A DNA stretch of 64,000 nt from Chloroflexota bacterium (GTDB lineage: Bacteria > Chloroflexota > Anaerolineae > UBA2200 > JACIWT01): contig JACIWT010000012.1 in the NCBI GenBank assembly GCA_014360825.1, positions 72-64,071 of the forward strand, written 5' to 3'. A program made the translations under genes and the position numbers. The stretch's first letter is position 1; the number at the start of each line of letters is the position of its first letter. The notes beneath the pieces are model-generated. The model was not told the DNA's origin, did not search any database, and worked only from the letters and a program-made list of their open reading frames with translations. Positions 3,083 through 8,317 of the stretch are shown piece after piece.

Positions 3083-3577
3083 ATGAAATGGCCATCAGCC
3101 ATCGAGAAAATACGCCGCAACCATGCTCTGGAACATGCCACGATCCACATCTTGAGCCAGCGATGTCCACGTGCTCAACTCATTGGGCACAGTGACGCTG
3201 ACGGATTTGTTATCTACGGTCACGTACCCACGGAGATCGTCGCTGCTACCGCATCCGAAGCGCTGGCACGTTTGCAAGCCGGTGAACGCGATTTAGCCGT
3301 GCACCCACGCTGTGGGACCAATTTGGCAATGGGTGCTCTTCTGACCGGGGCAACCTCATTCCTGGTGATGAAAAGCAGTGCCAAGCGGAAGATGAGTAAC
3401 CTACCCGGTGTGCTGCTGGCAACGACGTTGGCGCTAATGGCGGCACAACCGCTGGGCTTGAAAGTGCAGGAGCTCATTACCACTTCCGCTAACTTGGATA
3501 CGGCACTCATTGCGGACGTGAAGCGCTACATTCTCAGAGGTTTGACAGTTCACCGGGTCTTCGTGCACCACGAGTGA
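3083..3577 (+). CDS. Conserved hypothetical protein (His/Cys-rich, HxxEH motif)
   Basis: 164-aa ORF with no family I can recognise from sequence alone. Contains HALEHATIH and HPRCGTN, which could be metal-binding. Stop overlaps the holA start. Confidence 0.5.
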   Translation: MKWPSAIEKIRRNHALEHATIHILSQRCPRAQLIGHSDADGFVIYGHVPTEIVAATASEALARLQAGERDLAVHPRCGTNLAMGALLTGATSFLVMKSSAKRKMSNLPGVLLATTLALMAAQPLGLKVQELITTSANLDTALIADVKRYILRGLTVHRVFVHHE

Positions 3578-4584
3578 GAGCGATGTTTTATATATTGCAC
3601 GGCGAGGATGAATTCAGCCTCCACGAAGCACTGACCACAATGCGCGCGAAGATGGGTGAGCGCACGCTCGCTGACCTCAACACAACCGTGCTGGATGGCC
3701 GCAAACTTACCTTGACTGAACTGATGAACGCCTGTAATGCCATTCCTTTCGTGGCCAAACGGCGGCTGGTCATTGTGGAGAATTTCGCCTCGCGCCTCGA
3801 AGGGCCTCCACGAGGGCAGGGCAAAGCCAGGGGCGTGAAAGCAAACGATGAACTGCTTCAAGCGCTGAGGGAATATCTCCCCAAAATGCCGGAAACCACG
3901 CGACTGGTCTTCGTAGAGAACCATACTCTAAGCCCCCAGAACCCACTGTTGGAACTGGCCCAGCAAGAAAAAGGCGGGTATGTCAAAACATTTGAGCCAC
4001 CCAAGGGCGATGCGCTCACAAAGTGGATTGTGGAGCGAGTGAGAACAAAGGGCGGGGAGATCGAGGTTGTAGCAGCGACAGAACTAGCAAATTTCGTGGG
4101 TAATGACCTGAGGAAACTGGATCAAGAGTGTGAAAAACTCGTCCTTTATACCGCTGGAGAACGCACCATCACCACGGAAGATGTGTGCCAATTAGTGAGC
4201 CACGTGCAGGCCGCGAGTATCTTTACCCTGGTGGATGCCCTTGGGCATCGCGAGCGCGAACGTGCAATGCAGTTGTTACATGAGCAATTAGACCGGGATG
4301 CCACGCCCCTTTATCTGTTCTCTATGATCGTGCGCCAATTCCGCATCCTCTTACAGGTGAAAGAACTACTGGGTCATGGGCTGTCGCCAGCAGAGATTCG
4401 AGCGAAACTGGGTATTAGCAGCCAGTTTGTGGTAGACAAAGCGGTGGCGCAATCACGACAGTTTTCGATGGAGCGCTTGGAATGCATTTACCAACGCCTG
4501 GTGAACACCGACGCAGACATCAAGACGGGCTGTATGCCGGAGATACTGGCTTTGGATTTGCTTGTGGTAGACCTGTGCCGTTAG
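3574..4584 (+). CDS. holA: DNA polymerase III delta subunit
   Basis: N-terminus YILHGEDEF matches the HolA signature. 336 aa, typical length. Confidence 0.8.
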   Translation: MRAMFYILHGEDEFSLHEALTTMRAKMGERTLADLNTTVLDGRKLTLTELMNACNAIPFVAKRRLVIVENFASRLEGPPRGQGKARGVKANDELLQALREYLPKMPETTRLVFVENHTLSPQNPLLELAQQEKGGYVKTFEPPKGDALTKWIVERVRTKGGEIEVVAATELANFVGNDLRKLDQECEKLVLYTAGERTITTEDVCQLVSHVQAASIFTLVDALGHRERERAMQLLHEQLDRDATPLYLFSMIVRQFRILLQVKELLGHGLSPAEIRAKLGISSQFVVDKAVAQSRQFSMERLECIYQRLVNTDADIKTGCMPEILALDLLVVDLCR

Positions 4585-4642
4585 GGCAACAAATGGATCA
4601 GGCACCACCTCGAGCCTGATCCATTTGTGCGTAGTGAGCGAC

Positions 4643-4936
4643 TTATCTTCTGCGTTGTACTCCGAGCCAGAAATGATGGGGTGGAATATGTGGAACAGCG
4701 AGCACCCTTACCCCATTTTGCTCCAGCGTGTTCCCATTAAGTGTCATCGGGTTCACATAGCAGATGTTCGGCCGTCGACCGAATTTCTGCTCATAGCGCT
4801 GCGCTGCCGCTGTGATCTTAGTCCCCAAGTCGCGGCGCGGATCGTCGTCGAACCAGAGCAACCCTGCCTCCATCGGTGGCGCTCGCTTGCCCAATTCCAA
4901 GGTACCGGATCGATCCGTCAAAGAGGTCAAAGTCAA
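4643..4936 (-). CDS. Hypothetical small protein (WFDDD motif), last gene of the SOS-boxed operon
   Basis: 97-aa ORF. Its start overlaps the stop of the upstream ORF by 4 nt (ATGA), implying translational coupling. Shares a W-F-x-D-D motif with the ORF at 5274-5579. Confidence 0.45.
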   Translation of the reverse strand: MTLTSLTDRSGTLELGKRAPPMEAGLLWFDDDPRRDLGTKITAAAQRYEQKFGRRPNICYVNPMTLNGNTLEQNGVRVLAVPHIPPHHFWLGVQRRR

Positions 4937-5277
4937 TCCTCCCCGATTACCCGGAAATCCCGTGGGGCGCCATGCTCGACCATTGGCGGTATATAGGACG
5001 ACGGGAACATCTCACGCGGCGCCGGTGTTCCCCCTTGGATTACGATCACCGGCGGATATTCTCGCTGCCTGAGGTGGTCTTCCGCGCTCTCTTCCCGGGC
5101 TCGCATCCGGTGCGTCACAACCAGGACTAATACGCTCATCGGGATGGCGGCGATCACTCCACAGGCTACCCCTACTACCACCGCCATAGCCTCCGCGCTC
5201 ATGCGATTCCCTACCACAATGGCCAACGCCACTGCAAATACGACGCCTATCACTGCCACTGTTGCTCTACCGCTCAT
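4933..5277 (-). CDS. Hypothetical small membrane protein (two predicted TM helices)
   Basis: 114-aa ORF with two hydrophobic helices (VAVIGVVFAVALAIVVG and AVVVGVACGVIAAIPMSVLVLVV). ATGA overlaps at both ends. The plus-strand antisense ORF is low-complexity, which favours this strand. Confidence 0.5.
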   Translation of the reverse strand: MSGRATVAVIGVVFAVALAIVVGNRMSAEAMAVVVGVACGVIAAIPMSVLVLVVTHRMRAREESAEDHLRQREYPPVIVIQGGTPAPREMFPSSYIPPMVEHGAPRDFRVIGED

Positions 5278-5579
5278 GGTATCTGTTTCCTCCTGCTCTC
5301 ACACCAAGGACGTGGATCTACACCTTGGCTATCCAGAAGTTTCCCATCTACTCCCAGGGCTACGGCCACGCTCCATAACGCGGCCGCGAAACCCTCCTGA
5401 TAACCCTGTATGAACTCGTCCTCCCGCCTCATAGTCGAAACGCTCGTCCGGCATAACGCTGCCACCGAGCGAAGGATATTTGCGATATCGTCTCGGAACC
5501 AGATGTCTGTGCTCACGGTTTCACCTGCCTTCCGCCGGACGTCAGGCGGTCTCTCACTAATGTCTTCATGGGTAACCAT
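5274..5579 (-). CDS. Hypothetical small protein (WFRDD motif)
   Basis: 101-aa ORF. The annotated start overlaps the FtsK-like stop by about 67 nt, so the true start may be downstream. Weakly similar to the 4643-4936 ORF. Confidence 0.35.
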   Translation of the reverse strand: MVTHEDISERPPDVRRKAGETVSTDIWFRDDIANILRSVAALCRTSVSTMRREDEFIQGYQEGFAAALWSVAVALGVDGKLLDSQGVDPRPWCESRRKQIP

Positions 5580-6610
5580 GGCTTCACATCGCCAGCCACA
5601 GCCTTCCCCATGTTCAAATTGGTCAGTACTTGAGCGATCTCACCCTCCGAAATGAAAGCAGCCTGCAGCCTCGTTACCTGGCCCTTGGCTACTATCAGGA
5701 AATCGCCACGACCCAATAGCCGCTCCGCACCTGTTCCAGCCAGACCCGAGGCGACCTTTGCATCCTCGGGACTCGTGACGCTGCCTACAATACGCACAGG
5801 GAAATTCGATTTGACTAGGGATCCGATCACTGCCACGGTCGGCTTCTGGGTGCAGGCAACAAGATGCAAGCCCGCTTCCCGCCCCCGTTGGGTGAGCCGT
5901 GTGAGTGCTTCTTCCACTTCAGCCCCGCCCACTAAGATGAGGTCGGCGAGTTCATCGATGAAAATGACGACCCGAGGGGAATCAATTCCCATTCGATCGC
6001 GGCGTTCCATCTCGGCCACCAGGCCACGCAAGCGCTCCGGAGCAGCCCAAGGGTCGCGCACCACAGGGAATAACAGGTGGGGCAGATTATCCAAGGGTGC
6101 AAAGCCACGACCTTTGGGATCAAACAGGGCCAACTGCAGTTCTCGTTGGCGGCTGTGAAGGGCCAAGGAAATGATCATAGCCCGAGCGAGAGCGGTTTTG
6201 CCAGAGCCAGTGGTGCCGGCCAGAAGGACGTGTGCCACATCAGGGCTGGTCAGGTTGAGGAGAATGGGCACCCCAGTTTCGTCAAGCCCAAGCACTGGCG
6301 TGCAGGGTGGAACAAAGGCGAGTTGGTCGAGCAACGGAAGCAGGCGAACCGCAGCGGCTTCAACGCGGGGAATCTCCACGTTAAGGGTACCCCCATTGCG
6401 TATGATCCGGCAGGAAGGCACACCGAGGGAAAGAGCGATTTCCTCGGAGAGAGCCTGGATTCGTGCCAGACGAGTGCCTAAGGCAGGGGAAAGATGGTAG
6501 CGAACGAAGCGCGGTGTGACGACCCCTCCCCATACCTGGGTGGGGAGATGGTGGGAGGCCAGGACCATCTCAATCCGGTCGGCTTGGAATTCGAGATCTT
6601 GACGGCGCAT
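5513..6610 (-). CDS. FtsK/SpoIIIE-family DNA-translocase ATPase, truncated (beta/alpha motor only)
   Basis: Walker A LLAGTTGSGKT, Walker B VIFIDELADL, and an N-terminal stretch matching the FtsK beta domain (VTPRFVRYHLSPALGTRL...LNVEIPR). Only 365 aa: no N-terminal TM domain and no C-terminal gamma (KOPS-binding) domain. Confidence 0.8.
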   Translation of the reverse strand: MRRQDLEFQADRIEMVLASHHLPTQVWGGVVTPRFVRYHLSPALGTRLARIQALSEEIALSLGVPSCRIIRNGGTLNVEIPRVEAAAVRLLPLLDQLAFVPPCTPVLGLDETGVPILLNLTSPDVAHVLLAGTTGSGKTALARAMIISLALHSRQRELQLALFDPKGRGFAPLDNLPHLLFPVVRDPWAAPERLRGLVAEMERRDRMGIDSPRVVIFIDELADLILVGGAEVEEALTRLTQRGREAGLHLVACTQKPTVAVIGSLVKSNFPVRIVGSVTSPEDAKVASGLAGTGAERLLGRGDFLIVAKGQVTRLQAAFISEGEIAQVLTNLNMGKAVAGDVKPWLPMKTLVRDRLTSGGRQVKP

Positions 6611-6659
6611 AGTGCTCCTCCTAATTGCAAACGAATTGCGTGTCTCTGGTGGCTGGATA

Positions 6660-6712
6660 GAACAAATGTTCTATTACGGCCCCATTATAGCAGAACATTT
6701 GTTCTTTGTCAA
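6660..6712 (-). promoter_or_regulatory. Consensus sigma-70 promoter (TTGACA-17-TATAAT) with two LexA/Cheo boxes
   Basis: On the minus strand: TTGACA (plus 6707-6712), a 17-nt spacer containing GAACAAATGTTC (plus 6693-6704), TATAAT (plus 6684-6689), then a second box GAACATTTGTTC (plus 6660-6671) at the expected start site. Both boxes fit GAACN4GTTC. The FtsK-like ATG is at 6610. Confidence 0.7.
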
Positions 6713-6768
6713 GTGGAGCATGTTGAGTGCATTGAAGCGTTTGTAGACGTTGCATAGCTTGTGGTACA

Positions 6769-8076
6769 ATGGCGGTAAGTGCTTGGGCAGTGCACGACCA
6801 TATTTTAGGTTGTCGATTCTGGGTAGGCTGTTTTCAGGGGTCTGCATTGGAAATCTATTCTGTCAGTTACATTACGCGTTACATCCGCGAACTCTTTGAG
6901 GTGGATTTCACTCTCCAGGATATCTGGATAAGAGGTGAGGTTTCCAACCTGACACAGGCGCCCTCTGGACACGTCTATTTCACTCTGAAAGATGAGGCCG
7001 CGCAAATTCGCTGCGTTCTCTGGCGATCACAAGCGGCGCGCCTCACCCAGTTGCCTCGCGATGGCGATGGTGTTGTGGCCCACGGGCGCGTCAGCGTTTA
7101 CGAAGCCCAGGGAGTTTACCAATTCTACGTAGATATGGTGCAACCAGTCGGAGTGGGGTTGCTGTATCTCCAATTCGAGGCTCTTCGAAAAAAGTTAGAA
7201 TCCGAAGGACTGTTTGCACCGGAGCGAAAGCGCCCGCTACCACCCTATCCACAGCGCATTGGTGTGATAACATCACCCATCGGTGCGGCCATCCGTGATA
7301 TCCTGCATGTGCTGAGACGGCGCTACCCCATTGCTGAAGTCATCTTGGCCCCAACTTTAGTGCAAGGTGACGAAGCCCCACCACAGATTGTGGCAGCGCT
7401 CCGCGCTTTGAACGACTACCCCGACATAGAAGTGATCATTTTGGCCCGGGGAGGCGGATCCATAGAGGAATTGTGGGCATTTAATGATGAACGGGTGGCG
7501 CGAGCCATCGCCGCGTCACAGATCCCGGTGGTCACAGGAATCGGACACGAGACGGATTTCACCATCGCCGACTTCGTGGCAGACTTGCGTGCGCCAACTC
7601 CCACCGCCGCAGCAGAGATGGTTGCGCCCGAGCGCACATTAATGCTAGAGACCATCACGCGGTATGGTCAGCGCTTGGAACATCTGATGGAACAGCGAGT
7701 GCGAGAAGGCGAATTGCGCTTGGGCACACTGCGAGCGAGACTAGGGCGTGCCTCGCCCCAGGCGATACTGGAGGGATATGCGCAGCGCCTGGACGACATA
7801 ACACGGACGATGATGTCCATGATGGAACACGGCCTGAGCCTGCGCCAAGAGCGGTTGGCTGGCCGAGCGGCGCAACTCCAGAGCTTGGACCCGCAACATA
7901 TCTTGGAGCGCGGCTATGCAGTTGTATCGCGGACCGACTCGGGAGAGGTTGTACGCCGACGCGGTCAGGTTGCATCTGGGGATGGTATCCAGGTGCGAGT
8001 AAGCGATGGACACTTCAGAGCCACCGTGGACAGCAAAGAGAGTGAGCGAGGTCAAAAACAAGATGGGGAACTATAA
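6769..8076 (+). CDS. xseA: Exodeoxyribonuclease VII large subunit
   Basis: OB-fold N-terminus (VSYITRYIRELFE...IWIRGEVSN) and the ExoVII catalytic region. The annotated ATG overlaps a TACAAT -10-like hexamer, so the real start may be TTG at 6847, which has a GGGG RBS. Confidence 0.8.
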   Translation: MAVSAWAVHDHILGCRFWVGCFQGSALEIYSVSYITRYIRELFEVDFTLQDIWIRGEVSNLTQAPSGHVYFTLKDEAAQIRCVLWRSQAARLTQLPRDGDGVVAHGRVSVYEAQGVYQFYVDMVQPVGVGLLYLQFEALRKKLESEGLFAPERKRPLPPYPQRIGVITSPIGAAIRDILHVLRRRYPIAEVILAPTLVQGDEAPPQIVAALRALNDYPDIEVIILARGGGSIEELWAFNDERVARAIAASQIPVVTGIGHETDFTIADFVADLRAPTPTAAAEMVAPERTLMLETITRYGQRLEHLMEQRVREGELRLGTLRARLGRASPQAILEGYAQRLDDITRTMMSMMEHGLSLRQERLAGRAAQLQSLDPQHILERGYAVVSRTDSGEVVRRRGQVASGDGIQVRVSDGHFRATVDSKESERGQKQDGEL

Positions 8077-8317
8077 TTTTGAAGAAGCGATGAGACGGTT
8101 AGAGGAAATCGTAGACAGGCTCGAGAGCGGTGAATTGTCGTTGGAGGAATCTCTGGCGCTCTTCGAAGAGGGCATGAAACTGACTCAACACTGCTCCAGC
8201 CAGCTGGAGCAAGCCCGGCTCCAGGTGCGCCAATTGGTGATTGGATCTGGCGGCATCATGGGTGAGGAACCATTTGAGGCAGGAGACTCAGGGGAGGAGA
8301 ACAACGTCACCCTCTGA
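8063..8317 (+). CDS. xseB: Exodeoxyribonuclease VII small subunit
   Basis: MGNYNFEEAMRRLEEIVDRLESGELSLEESLALFEEG is the XseB signature. Start chosen at the internal ATG with a GAGGT RBS. Overlaps the xseA end. Confidence 0.8.
   Translation: MGNYNFEEAMRRLEEIVDRLESGELSLEESLALFEEGMKLTQHCSSQLEQARLQVRQLVIGSGGIMGEEPFEAGDSGEENNVTL

Follow-up and report, generated by a model that had tools for sequence, protein, structure and literature searches.

An FtsK-like motor, a small membrane hairpin and two unrelated small proteins in a predicted SOS operon of Chloroflexota

Gene models and organization of the operon

The stretch analyzed here (the window) covers 64,000 nt of contig JACIWT010000012.1 of a Chloroflexota bacterium (GCA_014360825.1, positions 72 to 64,071). 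On its minus strand, four head-to-tail open reading frames (ORFs) spanning 6610..4643 were found between the convergent holA gene and the divergent xseA and xseB genes. They form one operon, which encodes an FtsK-like ATPase, a small protein (ORF A), a membrane protein with two transmembrane (2-TM) segments and a second small protein (ORF C). The operon is preceded by a consensus promoter with two LexA boxes, and these boxes, like the gene order, are conserved in related Chloroflexota. The original prediction, made from the sequence of this stretch, had described ORFs at 5274-5579 and 4643-4936 on either side of an ORF at 4933-5277. All three exist on the minus strand, and the three small genes occupy three different frames. 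The features of the locus are as follows.

5513..6610, minus strand: FtsK-like ATPase, 365 amino acids (aa); AGGAGG lies 8 nt ahead of the ATG
5274..5516, minus strand: ORF A, 80 aa; starts at a GTG that overlaps the stop of the FtsK-like gene (GTGA); N-terminal motif D-I-W-F-R-D-D-I
4933..5277, minus strand: 2-TM hairpin gene, 114 aa; its ATG overlaps the ORF A stop (ATGA); AGGAGGA Shine-Dalgarno sequence upstream
4874..4932, minus strand: non-coding spacer of 59 nt from the membrane gene to ORF C; no codon-position bias
4643..4873, minus strand: ORF C, 76 aa, ATG start; small alpha/beta protein
4589..4628, no strand assigned: perfect 15-bp inverted repeat, located between the convergent holA and ORF C and closing the operon
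3574-4584, plus strand: holA, convergent with the operon
from 6769, plus strand: xseA, divergent; the listed start abuts the promoter region
8006-8317, plus strand: xseB, an exonuclease VII gene

The close relatives L016, L017 and L018 (84-93% protein identity; loci are numbered L001 onward) carry the same four genes beside holA, and their DNA was aligned with that of the window in a four-way alignment. The numbers of variable columns at codon positions 1/2/3 were 18/12/48 in the 80-aa frame of ORF A, 18/12/70 in the membrane gene and 19/7/48 in the 76-aa frame of ORF C. This concentration of variable columns at the third codon position marks ORF A, the membrane gene and ORF C as genuine genes that are subject to purifying selection. 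The small ORFs of the original prediction are thus conserved in related genomes, where they have families of homologues and show this selection.

The start of ORF A, which had been left open in the original prediction, was settled at GTG 5516. A 101-aa version starting at 5579 was ruled out by the starts of the homologues and by the absence of codon-position bias between 5579 and 5517, where the variable columns in the A frame were 12/12/8 and the coding signal is absent. The homologues of the A family (75-100 aa) all start with M-G/S-x-D-phi-W-F, the GTG at 5516 pairs with ATG in L016 and L018, and the NCBI record identical to ORF A is an 80-aa protein (H5T64_09110, "MAG: Chloroflexi bacterium", where MAG stands for metagenome-assembled genome). 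With this start, the overlap with the FtsK-like stop is 4 nt (GTGA) and not the approximately 67 nt described earlier. For ORF C, an extension from TTG 4936 was ruled out on conservation, though the frame is open in all four close relatives: the 63 nt at 4936-4874 were 60% variable, with 10/13/15 variable columns by codon position and no third-position bias. Most of the 55 ORF C homologues have 74-83 aa, and nearly all of the aligned ones begin at M-x-x-G-L-L-W-F-D-D-D.

With ORF C starting at ATG 4873, the TTGA "overlap" with the membrane gene is not a true junction and is replaced by the 59-nt spacer. The 4-nt overlaps between different frames that had been attributed to the whole set therefore hold for the FtsK-like gene and ORF A (GTGA) and for ORF A and the membrane gene (ATGA), but not for the membrane gene and ORF C. 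Stoichiometric co-translation, which had been deduced from them, does not follow, since an overlap implies coupling and not stoichiometry and only two junctions overlap. Three unannotated protein families are now defined with corrected gene starts.

The inverted repeat at 4589-4628 is probably a bidirectional terminator hairpin, and it was missed by a consensus terminator scan because it has no T-run. On the other side of the operon, the true start of xseA may lie further downstream than the listed 6769. Elsewhere in the window, positions 1-1800 form a housekeeping neighbourhood with tRNA-Trp, rpmG, tuf and a tRNA-Thr/Tyr/Thr cluster, and a 164-aa ORF before holA (3083-3577) is a positional match to a DUF6391 gene in the syntenic locus L018.

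Promoter, LexA boxes and conservation across Chloroflexota

The 158-nt region ahead of the FtsK-like gene (6611-6768) contains a sigma-70 type promoter that matches the consensus at 12 of 12 positions, with a 17-nt spacer and a TG-extended -10 hexamer; TTGACA-17-TATAAT was the only promoter-like site in 4500-6850. The perfect motif GAAC-N4-GTTC occurs only twice in the 64-kb window, both times in this region. The two sites form a 14-nt palindromic pair, with 33 nt between their starts, that brackets the -10 hexamer.

6707..6712, minus strand: -35 hexamer TTGACA of the consensus promoter
6692..6705, no strand assigned: LexA box 1, AGAACATTTGTTCT, core GAAC-N4-GTTC at 6693-6704, inside the -35/-10 spacer
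6684..6689, minus strand: -10 hexamer TATAAT, TG-extended
6659..6672, no strand assigned: LexA box 2, AGAACAAATGTTCT, core at 6660-6671, located 12-25 nt downstream of the -10 hexamer, over the likely transcription start

GAAC-N4-GTTC is the LexA motif and operator of Gram-positive bacteria (PMC3323433). According to this match, LexA is predicted to bind both sites, and the operon appears to belong to the LexA (SOS) regulon. The LexA operator of Dehalococcoides is reportedly also GAAC-N4-GTTC. A non-coding RNA at 6652-6714, suggested by a sub-threshold Rfam match to "mir-3660" (27.6 bits, compared with a gathering score of 70), was rejected as an artefact, because the two mutually complementary LexA boxes form a hairpin-like palindrome. 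The exonuclease VII genes xseA and xseB might also be SOS-controlled through the shared box region.

Conservation of the locus was analyzed in 131 loci, of which 51 genome loci were collected through the membrane protein and 80 metagenome loci through ORF C. All 51 genome loci come from MAGs of Chloroflexota, whose labels are Anaerolineae, Caldilineae, Chloroflexia or unclassified Chloroflexota. Taken together, the related loci amount to 697 kb and contain 135 perfect boxes, compared with 10.6 expected by chance. A box was observed upstream of the FtsK-like gene or the adjacent lexA in 47 of the 51 loci that include the FtsK-like start, which places a Gram-positive-type LexA box ahead of lexA and of this operon in Chloroflexota, and for 35 of these 51 loci lexA itself is the immediate upstream neighbour, read in the same direction. 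Paired boxes, spaced by about 22-36 nt, are seen repeatedly ahead of orthologous operons. Moreover, GAAC-N4-GTTC is also present about 50-100 nt before the lexA starts; this is the expected autoregulation, and the motif is thereby validated for this phylum. The lexA genes of the related loci contain both the LexA_DNA_bind and the Peptidase_S24 domains. Tandem lexA-like pairs precede the FtsK-like operon in L036, L043, L051, L053, L055, L059, L061 and L066; the second copy has only 24-52% identity to the query LexA, and each copy has its own GAAC-N4-GTTC boxes.

The general gene order is lexA (sometimes two in tandem), a Cys-rich gene, the FtsK-like gene, ORF A, the 2-TM hairpin gene, DUF6504 and ORF C. 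The FtsK-like motor and the 2-TM hairpin constitute the core, and all other members are optional. The Cys-rich protein, of about 130-150 aa and with the pattern C..R.V...GRI.C.KI..G..EVSP..C..CP...C..L.F.L, was found in 27 of the 131 loci, where its gene follows the LexA boxes and precedes the FtsK-like gene (for example L113 346-789, L124 3463-3906, L019, L032, L036, L040, L043, L051, L055, L057-L059, L061 and L066), and is absent from the window. A DUF6504 gene (PF20114) often stands between the hairpin gene and ORF C (L006 2142-2441, L011 5386-5655, L024, L049 and about a dozen more), which ties this uncharacterised Pfam family to the predicted LexA regulon of Chloroflexota; no plasmid homologues of DUF6504 were found. 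In L106, L111, L113, L124 and L127, ORF A and ORF C are adjacent in the order lexA, boxes, Cys-rich gene, A, C, with neither motor nor hairpin, and both therefore appear to be members of the SOS regulon in their own right. The operon flanks vary by lineage (rpsT, ileS, lexA, holA). In the literature searched, no paper on a lexA-linked FtsK-like operon in Chloroflexota was found.

Properties of the encoded proteins

The FtsK-like protein matched Pfam FtsK_SpoIIIE (PF01580, 2.7e-32) and FtsK_alpha (PF17854, 3.8e-10), both past the cut-offs, and it is a member of the FtsK/SpoIIIE ATPase superfamily. The closest solved chain was the FtsK motor of Pseudomonas aeruginosa (2iuu, E 5e-50), whereas EssC/EccC reached only about 1e-12 to 1e-15, and alignment to the P. 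aeruginosa motor showed that Walker A (GTTGSGKT) and Walker B (VIFIDELAD) are both intact. The Ftsk_gamma domain gave no match even at E values up to 1, and the protein stops approximately 30 variable residues past the motor. Its alpha domain begins at residue 3, which leaves no space for an N-terminal membrane domain in the 365 aa, and no hydrophobic domain was found there. The protein is most likely a double-stranded DNA pump that, because the gamma and membrane domains are missing, is unable to read polarity signals of the KOPS (FtsK-orienting polar sequences) type or to reach the membrane by itself. The architecture of EssC (multiple ATPases, FHA, transmembrane segments) was not found either, as the protein has a single motor and scores far under the equivalog cut-offs. 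When the gene set was analyzed with PADLOC, only generic FtsK-domain matches (SspH C-terminus, mad8) were obtained and no defined defence system.

The 114-aa membrane protein has hydrophobic segments at about residues 5-23 and 33-54, in agreement with the double-TM protein of the original prediction, followed by a basic stretch with 5 K/R in 21 residues. Given that this stretch comes after the second segment (TM2), the positive-inside rule makes an N-in/C-in hairpin with a cytoplasmic tail the likely topology. At least 174 homologues were found, in which the loop and TM2 are nearly invariant (GNRMSAEAMAVVVGVxCGV..P) and the tail keeps the motif YPPVVVIQGG, then R-x-F-x-V-G (R-F-x-V-G-E). No LysM match was detected with Pfam, and the two TM segments are unlike the single-pass YneA/ChiZ type. 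The FtsK-like gene is directly upstream of the hairpin gene in nearly all loci with enough upstream sequence. Several Chloroflexota MAGs contain two hairpin-gene copies on different contigs (for example L022/L027, L037/L052, L062/L064 and L063/L069), and the copies in L064, L065 and L021 have no FtsK-like gene upstream.

For ORF A, a search of 1.8 billion representative proteins yielded 54 relatives. In the predicted model, which has a predicted local distance difference test (pLDDT) score of 77, two helices (5-27 and 34-53) form a hairpin, and the basic tail is disordered. The fold search gave only generic helical matches with E values above 4, ESAT-6/CFP-10 appearing at a non-significant E of 6.2, and ORF A had no Pfam match to WXG100 (PF06013). 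In relatives of approximately 260 aa (P0179-P0198, about 240-285 aa), the ORF A domain is present in four tandem copies. The gene of one such four-repeat protein adjoins a Band_7 gene, away from any FtsK-like gene, a context that is uninformative.

A word search returned 55 homologues of ORF C, and metagenomes contain more than 476. The AlphaFold2 model is a compact beta-alpha-beta4 domain (pLDDT 91.6). Residues G4, L5, L6, W7, F8, D9, D11, R14, K19, K30, G32, P35, C38, P65, H66, H67, F68, W69 and G71 are invariant or nearly so, and the conserved polar residues among them (D9, D11, R14, K19, K30, C38, H66 and H67) suggest a possible binding or metal site. The model had no match in the PDB at E ≤ 0.001, and against viral models it matched only uncharacterised phage proteins, with E values of about 0.01 and TM-scores of about 0.6. 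A Pfam scan of 25 homologues gave no consistent match. A response-regulator receiver was considered, since the beta-strand-DDD-helix start is similar to the receiver N-terminus, and was rejected because there is no Pfam Response_reg match and the protein is too short.

Homologues of ORF C were also found in other contexts. They are located in the mraY/murD interval of dcw (division and cell wall) clusters in L001 (6001-6246), L112, L114, L130 and L153, with no LexA box nearby, and they adjoin murJ in L081 and L086, again with no LexA box nearby. Together with FtsK-family ATPases, ORF C occurs in three contexts, namely the SOS operon, a mobile-element-like cluster (L003-L005 and L072) and the viral-like contig L070. 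In L003-L005 and L072 (an IMG/VR contig), the order is resolvase, HTH_17, HNH, a C-like gene (129 aa), FtsK (467 aa), a 147-aa gene, an FtsK-like gene (402 aa), a homologue of the TM hairpin and ParA. The L003 cluster is a paralogous module outside the SOS context, and its FtsK-like protein is 46% identical to that of the window.

For ORF A, the membrane protein and ORF C, nothing above noise was obtained with Pfam, NCBIfam, PHROGs or PADLOC (the membrane protein had a PADLOC match at 0.086). The statement in the original prediction that they belong to no known family is therefore upheld for these databases.

The W-F-x-D-D motif reported for the two outer small proteins is real: in the six-frame translation of the window, the pattern WF.DD occurred exactly twice, once in ORF A and once in ORF C, and it lies at an equal distance from the N-terminus in the two families. 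In the A family (31-sequence alignment), W is conserved in 29/31, F in 27/31 and D10 in 30/31 sequences; in the C family (48-sequence alignment), W and D9 are invariant (48/48) and F and D11 are each found in 47/48. From this motif, ORF A and ORF C had been taken for weak paralogs, which in the fuller form of that explanation would be diverged copies on either side of the membrane protein, produced in fixed stoichiometry. Conservation of the N-terminal phi-W-F-x-D-D in both families and an hhalign E-value of 0.003 for the 31-sequence A profile against the 48-sequence C profile speak for it. However, the hhalign match covers 12 columns (LWFxDD..L) at 10% probability, and BLASTP of ORF A against ORF C returned no alignment. 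The predicted folds also differ, the motif opening helix 1 of ORF A but forming strand beta-1 (L-L-W-F) and the following loop (D-D-D) of ORF C in the AlphaFold models. The two genes were gained and lost independently: of the 51 membrane-protein loci, 12 have A, 21 have C and 6 have both, the last being approximately the number expected under independence. Finally, ORF C is set off by the 59-nt spacer and is not translationally coupled. Because there is no similarity past the motif and the predicted folds are different, ORF A and ORF C are unrelated families and not paralogs, and common descent, contradicted by these data, is very improbable. We read the shared motif as convergence or coincidence in different structural settings, although it may serve a common docking role.

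Proposed function and comparison with known systems

The operon probably encodes a DNA translocase module that is induced by the SOS response, tethered to the membrane and connected with cell division, an account that we hold with moderate confidence. In undamaged cells, LexA bound to the two operators around the -10 hexamer would keep the operon off, and after DNA damage the RecA-stimulated cleavage of LexA would free it. The 365-aa motor of the FtsK type has lost its membrane domain and the sequence-reading gamma domain. ORF A would be made by translational coupling to the motor and the hairpin protein by coupling to ORF A, and ORF C would be translated independently. In trans, the hairpin would take the place of the anchor that is built into canonical FtsK/SpoIIIE in cis, and its conserved cytoplasmic tail would tether or target the hexameric double-stranded DNA pump to the membrane or septum. 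Such a module could clear or rescue damaged or late-replicating DNA at septa as they close, in bacteria that are mostly filamentous. ORF A and ORF C, and in relatives the DUF6504 and Cys-rich proteins, would be optional modulators that link the module to the division and cell-wall machinery, and a delay of division through ORF A, ORF C and the other small proteins is conceivable.

Several points weigh against this account. The lexA gene is not within the 64-kb window, and the boxes share their intergenic region with the divergent xseA, which could be regulated too or instead. We infer the contact between motor and anchor from the adjacency of their genes, and the functional steps that go beyond gene linkage and the regulation read from the sequence are likewise inferred. 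No fold or family match assigns a biochemical function to ORF A or ORF C. Moreover, the membrane protein is most conserved in its loop and TM2, a pattern that would equally be expected of an inhibitor that acts on a divisome protein within the membrane (compare SidA or DidA).

One alternative is an SOS division checkpoint, in which the 2-TM protein and/or ORF C would be a damage-induced division inhibitor (compare YneA, SosA, ChiZ, SidA/DidA and SulA) and the motor a co-induced helper. As far as the references cited in PMC9380542 indicate, the usual SOS division inhibitors of other phyla are small membrane proteins encoded beside lexA behind LexA boxes. The adjacency of lexA in 35/51 loci, the strong conservation of the loop and TM2, and the ORF C homologues in the dcw cluster (mraY/murD) and beside murJ are consistent with such a role. 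However, the membrane protein almost never occurs without the FtsK-like gene, a partner that known inhibitors can do without. It lacks LysM and any other extracytoplasmic domain, and its conserved tail is predicted to be cytoplasmic. An inhibitor inside the dcw cluster without a nearby LexA box would also be odd. A checkpoint is therefore a tenable though clearly less probable explanation; it partly overlaps, and is compatible with, the proposed tethered translocase.

An extended version of the translocase proposal, much less probable than the proposal itself, assumes a phylum-wide SOS module of a "split FtsK" (a soluble motor and a dedicated 2-TM anchor) with interchangeable small effectors (ORF A, ORF C, DUF6504 and the Cys-rich protein). 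The motif shared by the unrelated ORF A and ORF C would then have arisen by convergence, as a docking site for a single common partner, which would be the motor or a protein of the divisome or the cell wall. If this reading is true, the module would serve these filamentous bacteria both as a checkpoint after DNA damage and as a means of rescuing chromosomes.

Many Chloroflexota are filamentous, which would be in keeping with a damage-induced intercellular DNA transfer, in which the motor and an oligomer of the hairpin would form a conduit for double-stranded DNA across filament septa, with neighbours giving a repair template, as compared with Streptomyces TraB conjugation and the UV-induced Ced DNA-import system of Sulfolobales. 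The paralogous module in the mobile-element-like cluster (resolvase, HNH, ParA, second FtsK), including one contig classed as viral in IMG/VR, and a weak NCBIfam match to CedB (0.0028) point in the same direction. This explanation is nevertheless unlikely: the operon lies between the housekeeping genes holA and xseA with no integrase or transfer genes, the CedB match is far below the cut-off and reflects the shared P-loop, and nothing points to a pore.

Still less likely is that the operon was left behind, and domesticated, from a mobile element or prophage under LexA control, the small ORFs being element-specific accessory genes without a host function. Related modules on mobile or viral-like contigs, the different operon flanks among lineages and the two copies in several genomes would be in keeping with it, but the purifying selection is strong, the module is phylum-wide with a conserved order and is linked to the cell's own lexA (LexA_DNA_bind and Peptidase_S24), and no integrase, att-like repeats or structural genes are found at this locus. 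A type VII-like secretion system, in which the FtsK/SpoIIIE-family ATPase would export ORF A as a WXG100-like hairpin, is contradicted by the data and hardly credible: an 80-aa helical hairpin does lie beside an FtsK-family ATPase and ESAT-6/CFP-10 is among its non-significant fold matches, but there is no WXG100 Pfam match, the single motor is closest to the DNA-pumping FtsK and has no EssC architecture, and ORF A is dispensable in most loci.

For the coupling of DNA damage to segregation and division outside the model phyla, the operon provides a testable candidate in Chloroflexota, a large, mostly uncultured and often filamentous phylum. The module adds three or four small protein families without annotation to an FtsK-type pump under predicted LexA control. 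To our knowledge, no SulA/YneA-type inhibitor has been described for Chloroflexota, although no search aimed at one was made. Should the 2-TM protein recruit the motor, the pair would be a natural split version of FtsK/SpoIIIE, parallel to SmeA-SffA.

Among known systems, the soluble SftA of Bacillus subtilis, a septal motor of the FtsK family that lacks transmembrane segments, resembles the Chloroflexota motor, but it is much larger, and it is not known to be encoded in a lexA operon or to depend on a dedicated 2-TM partner. The Ced system of Sulfolobales likewise combines a UV- and DNA-damage-induced ATPase of the FtsK/HerA class with small membrane proteins; it is archaeal, of another ATPase clade and pilus-linked, and its only link to the Chloroflexota operon is the sub-threshold NCBIfam match. 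The inhibitors YneA, SosA, ChiZ and SidA/DidA share with the present case a small membrane protein beside lexA behind LexA boxes, but in the Chloroflexota hairpin neither LysM nor an extracellular domain was found, its gene almost always accompanies an FtsK-like one, its tail is predicted to be cytoplasmic, and it shows no Pfam or NCBIfam similarity to them.

Two systems are closer. The ftsK gene of Escherichia coli is SOS-induced from the dinH promoter (PMC4080785), so that in E. coli dinH-ftsK, as here by prediction, an FtsK-type translocase is under LexA control and damage is tied to late division and chromosome clearance (PMC4080785). The E. coli FtsK is, however, a single 147-kDa protein with membrane domain, linker and gamma domain, whereas the Chloroflexota motor, at 365 aa, has neither a membrane nor a gamma domain, the membrane part being encoded apart from it as a 2-TM protein. 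LexA boxes read CTGT-N8-ACAG in E. coli and GAAC-N4-GTTC here, and the Chloroflexota operon has the extra small genes. Streptomyces has a small membrane protein, SmeA, that directs the FtsK-like SffA to septa (PMC4255298; also indicated by the title of Ausmees 2007 as cited in PMC9380542), and smeA has a LexA site in S. venezuelae (PMC9380542). In both cases the bacterium is filamentous, and the gene of the small membrane protein adjoins that of a second protein, which is FtsK-like. Unlike the Chloroflexota module, SmeA-SffA occurs only in streptomycetes and their close relatives, is under developmental control and decreases, instead of increasing, after mitomycin C; its role is still unknown (PMC4255298). 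The gene order is also reversed, and the likeness of SmeA to the Chloroflexota hairpin is a functional analogy only. The operon is thus a variant of two known themes, the SOS-induced FtsK and the small membrane partner of an FtsK-like protein, and not a new kind of system.

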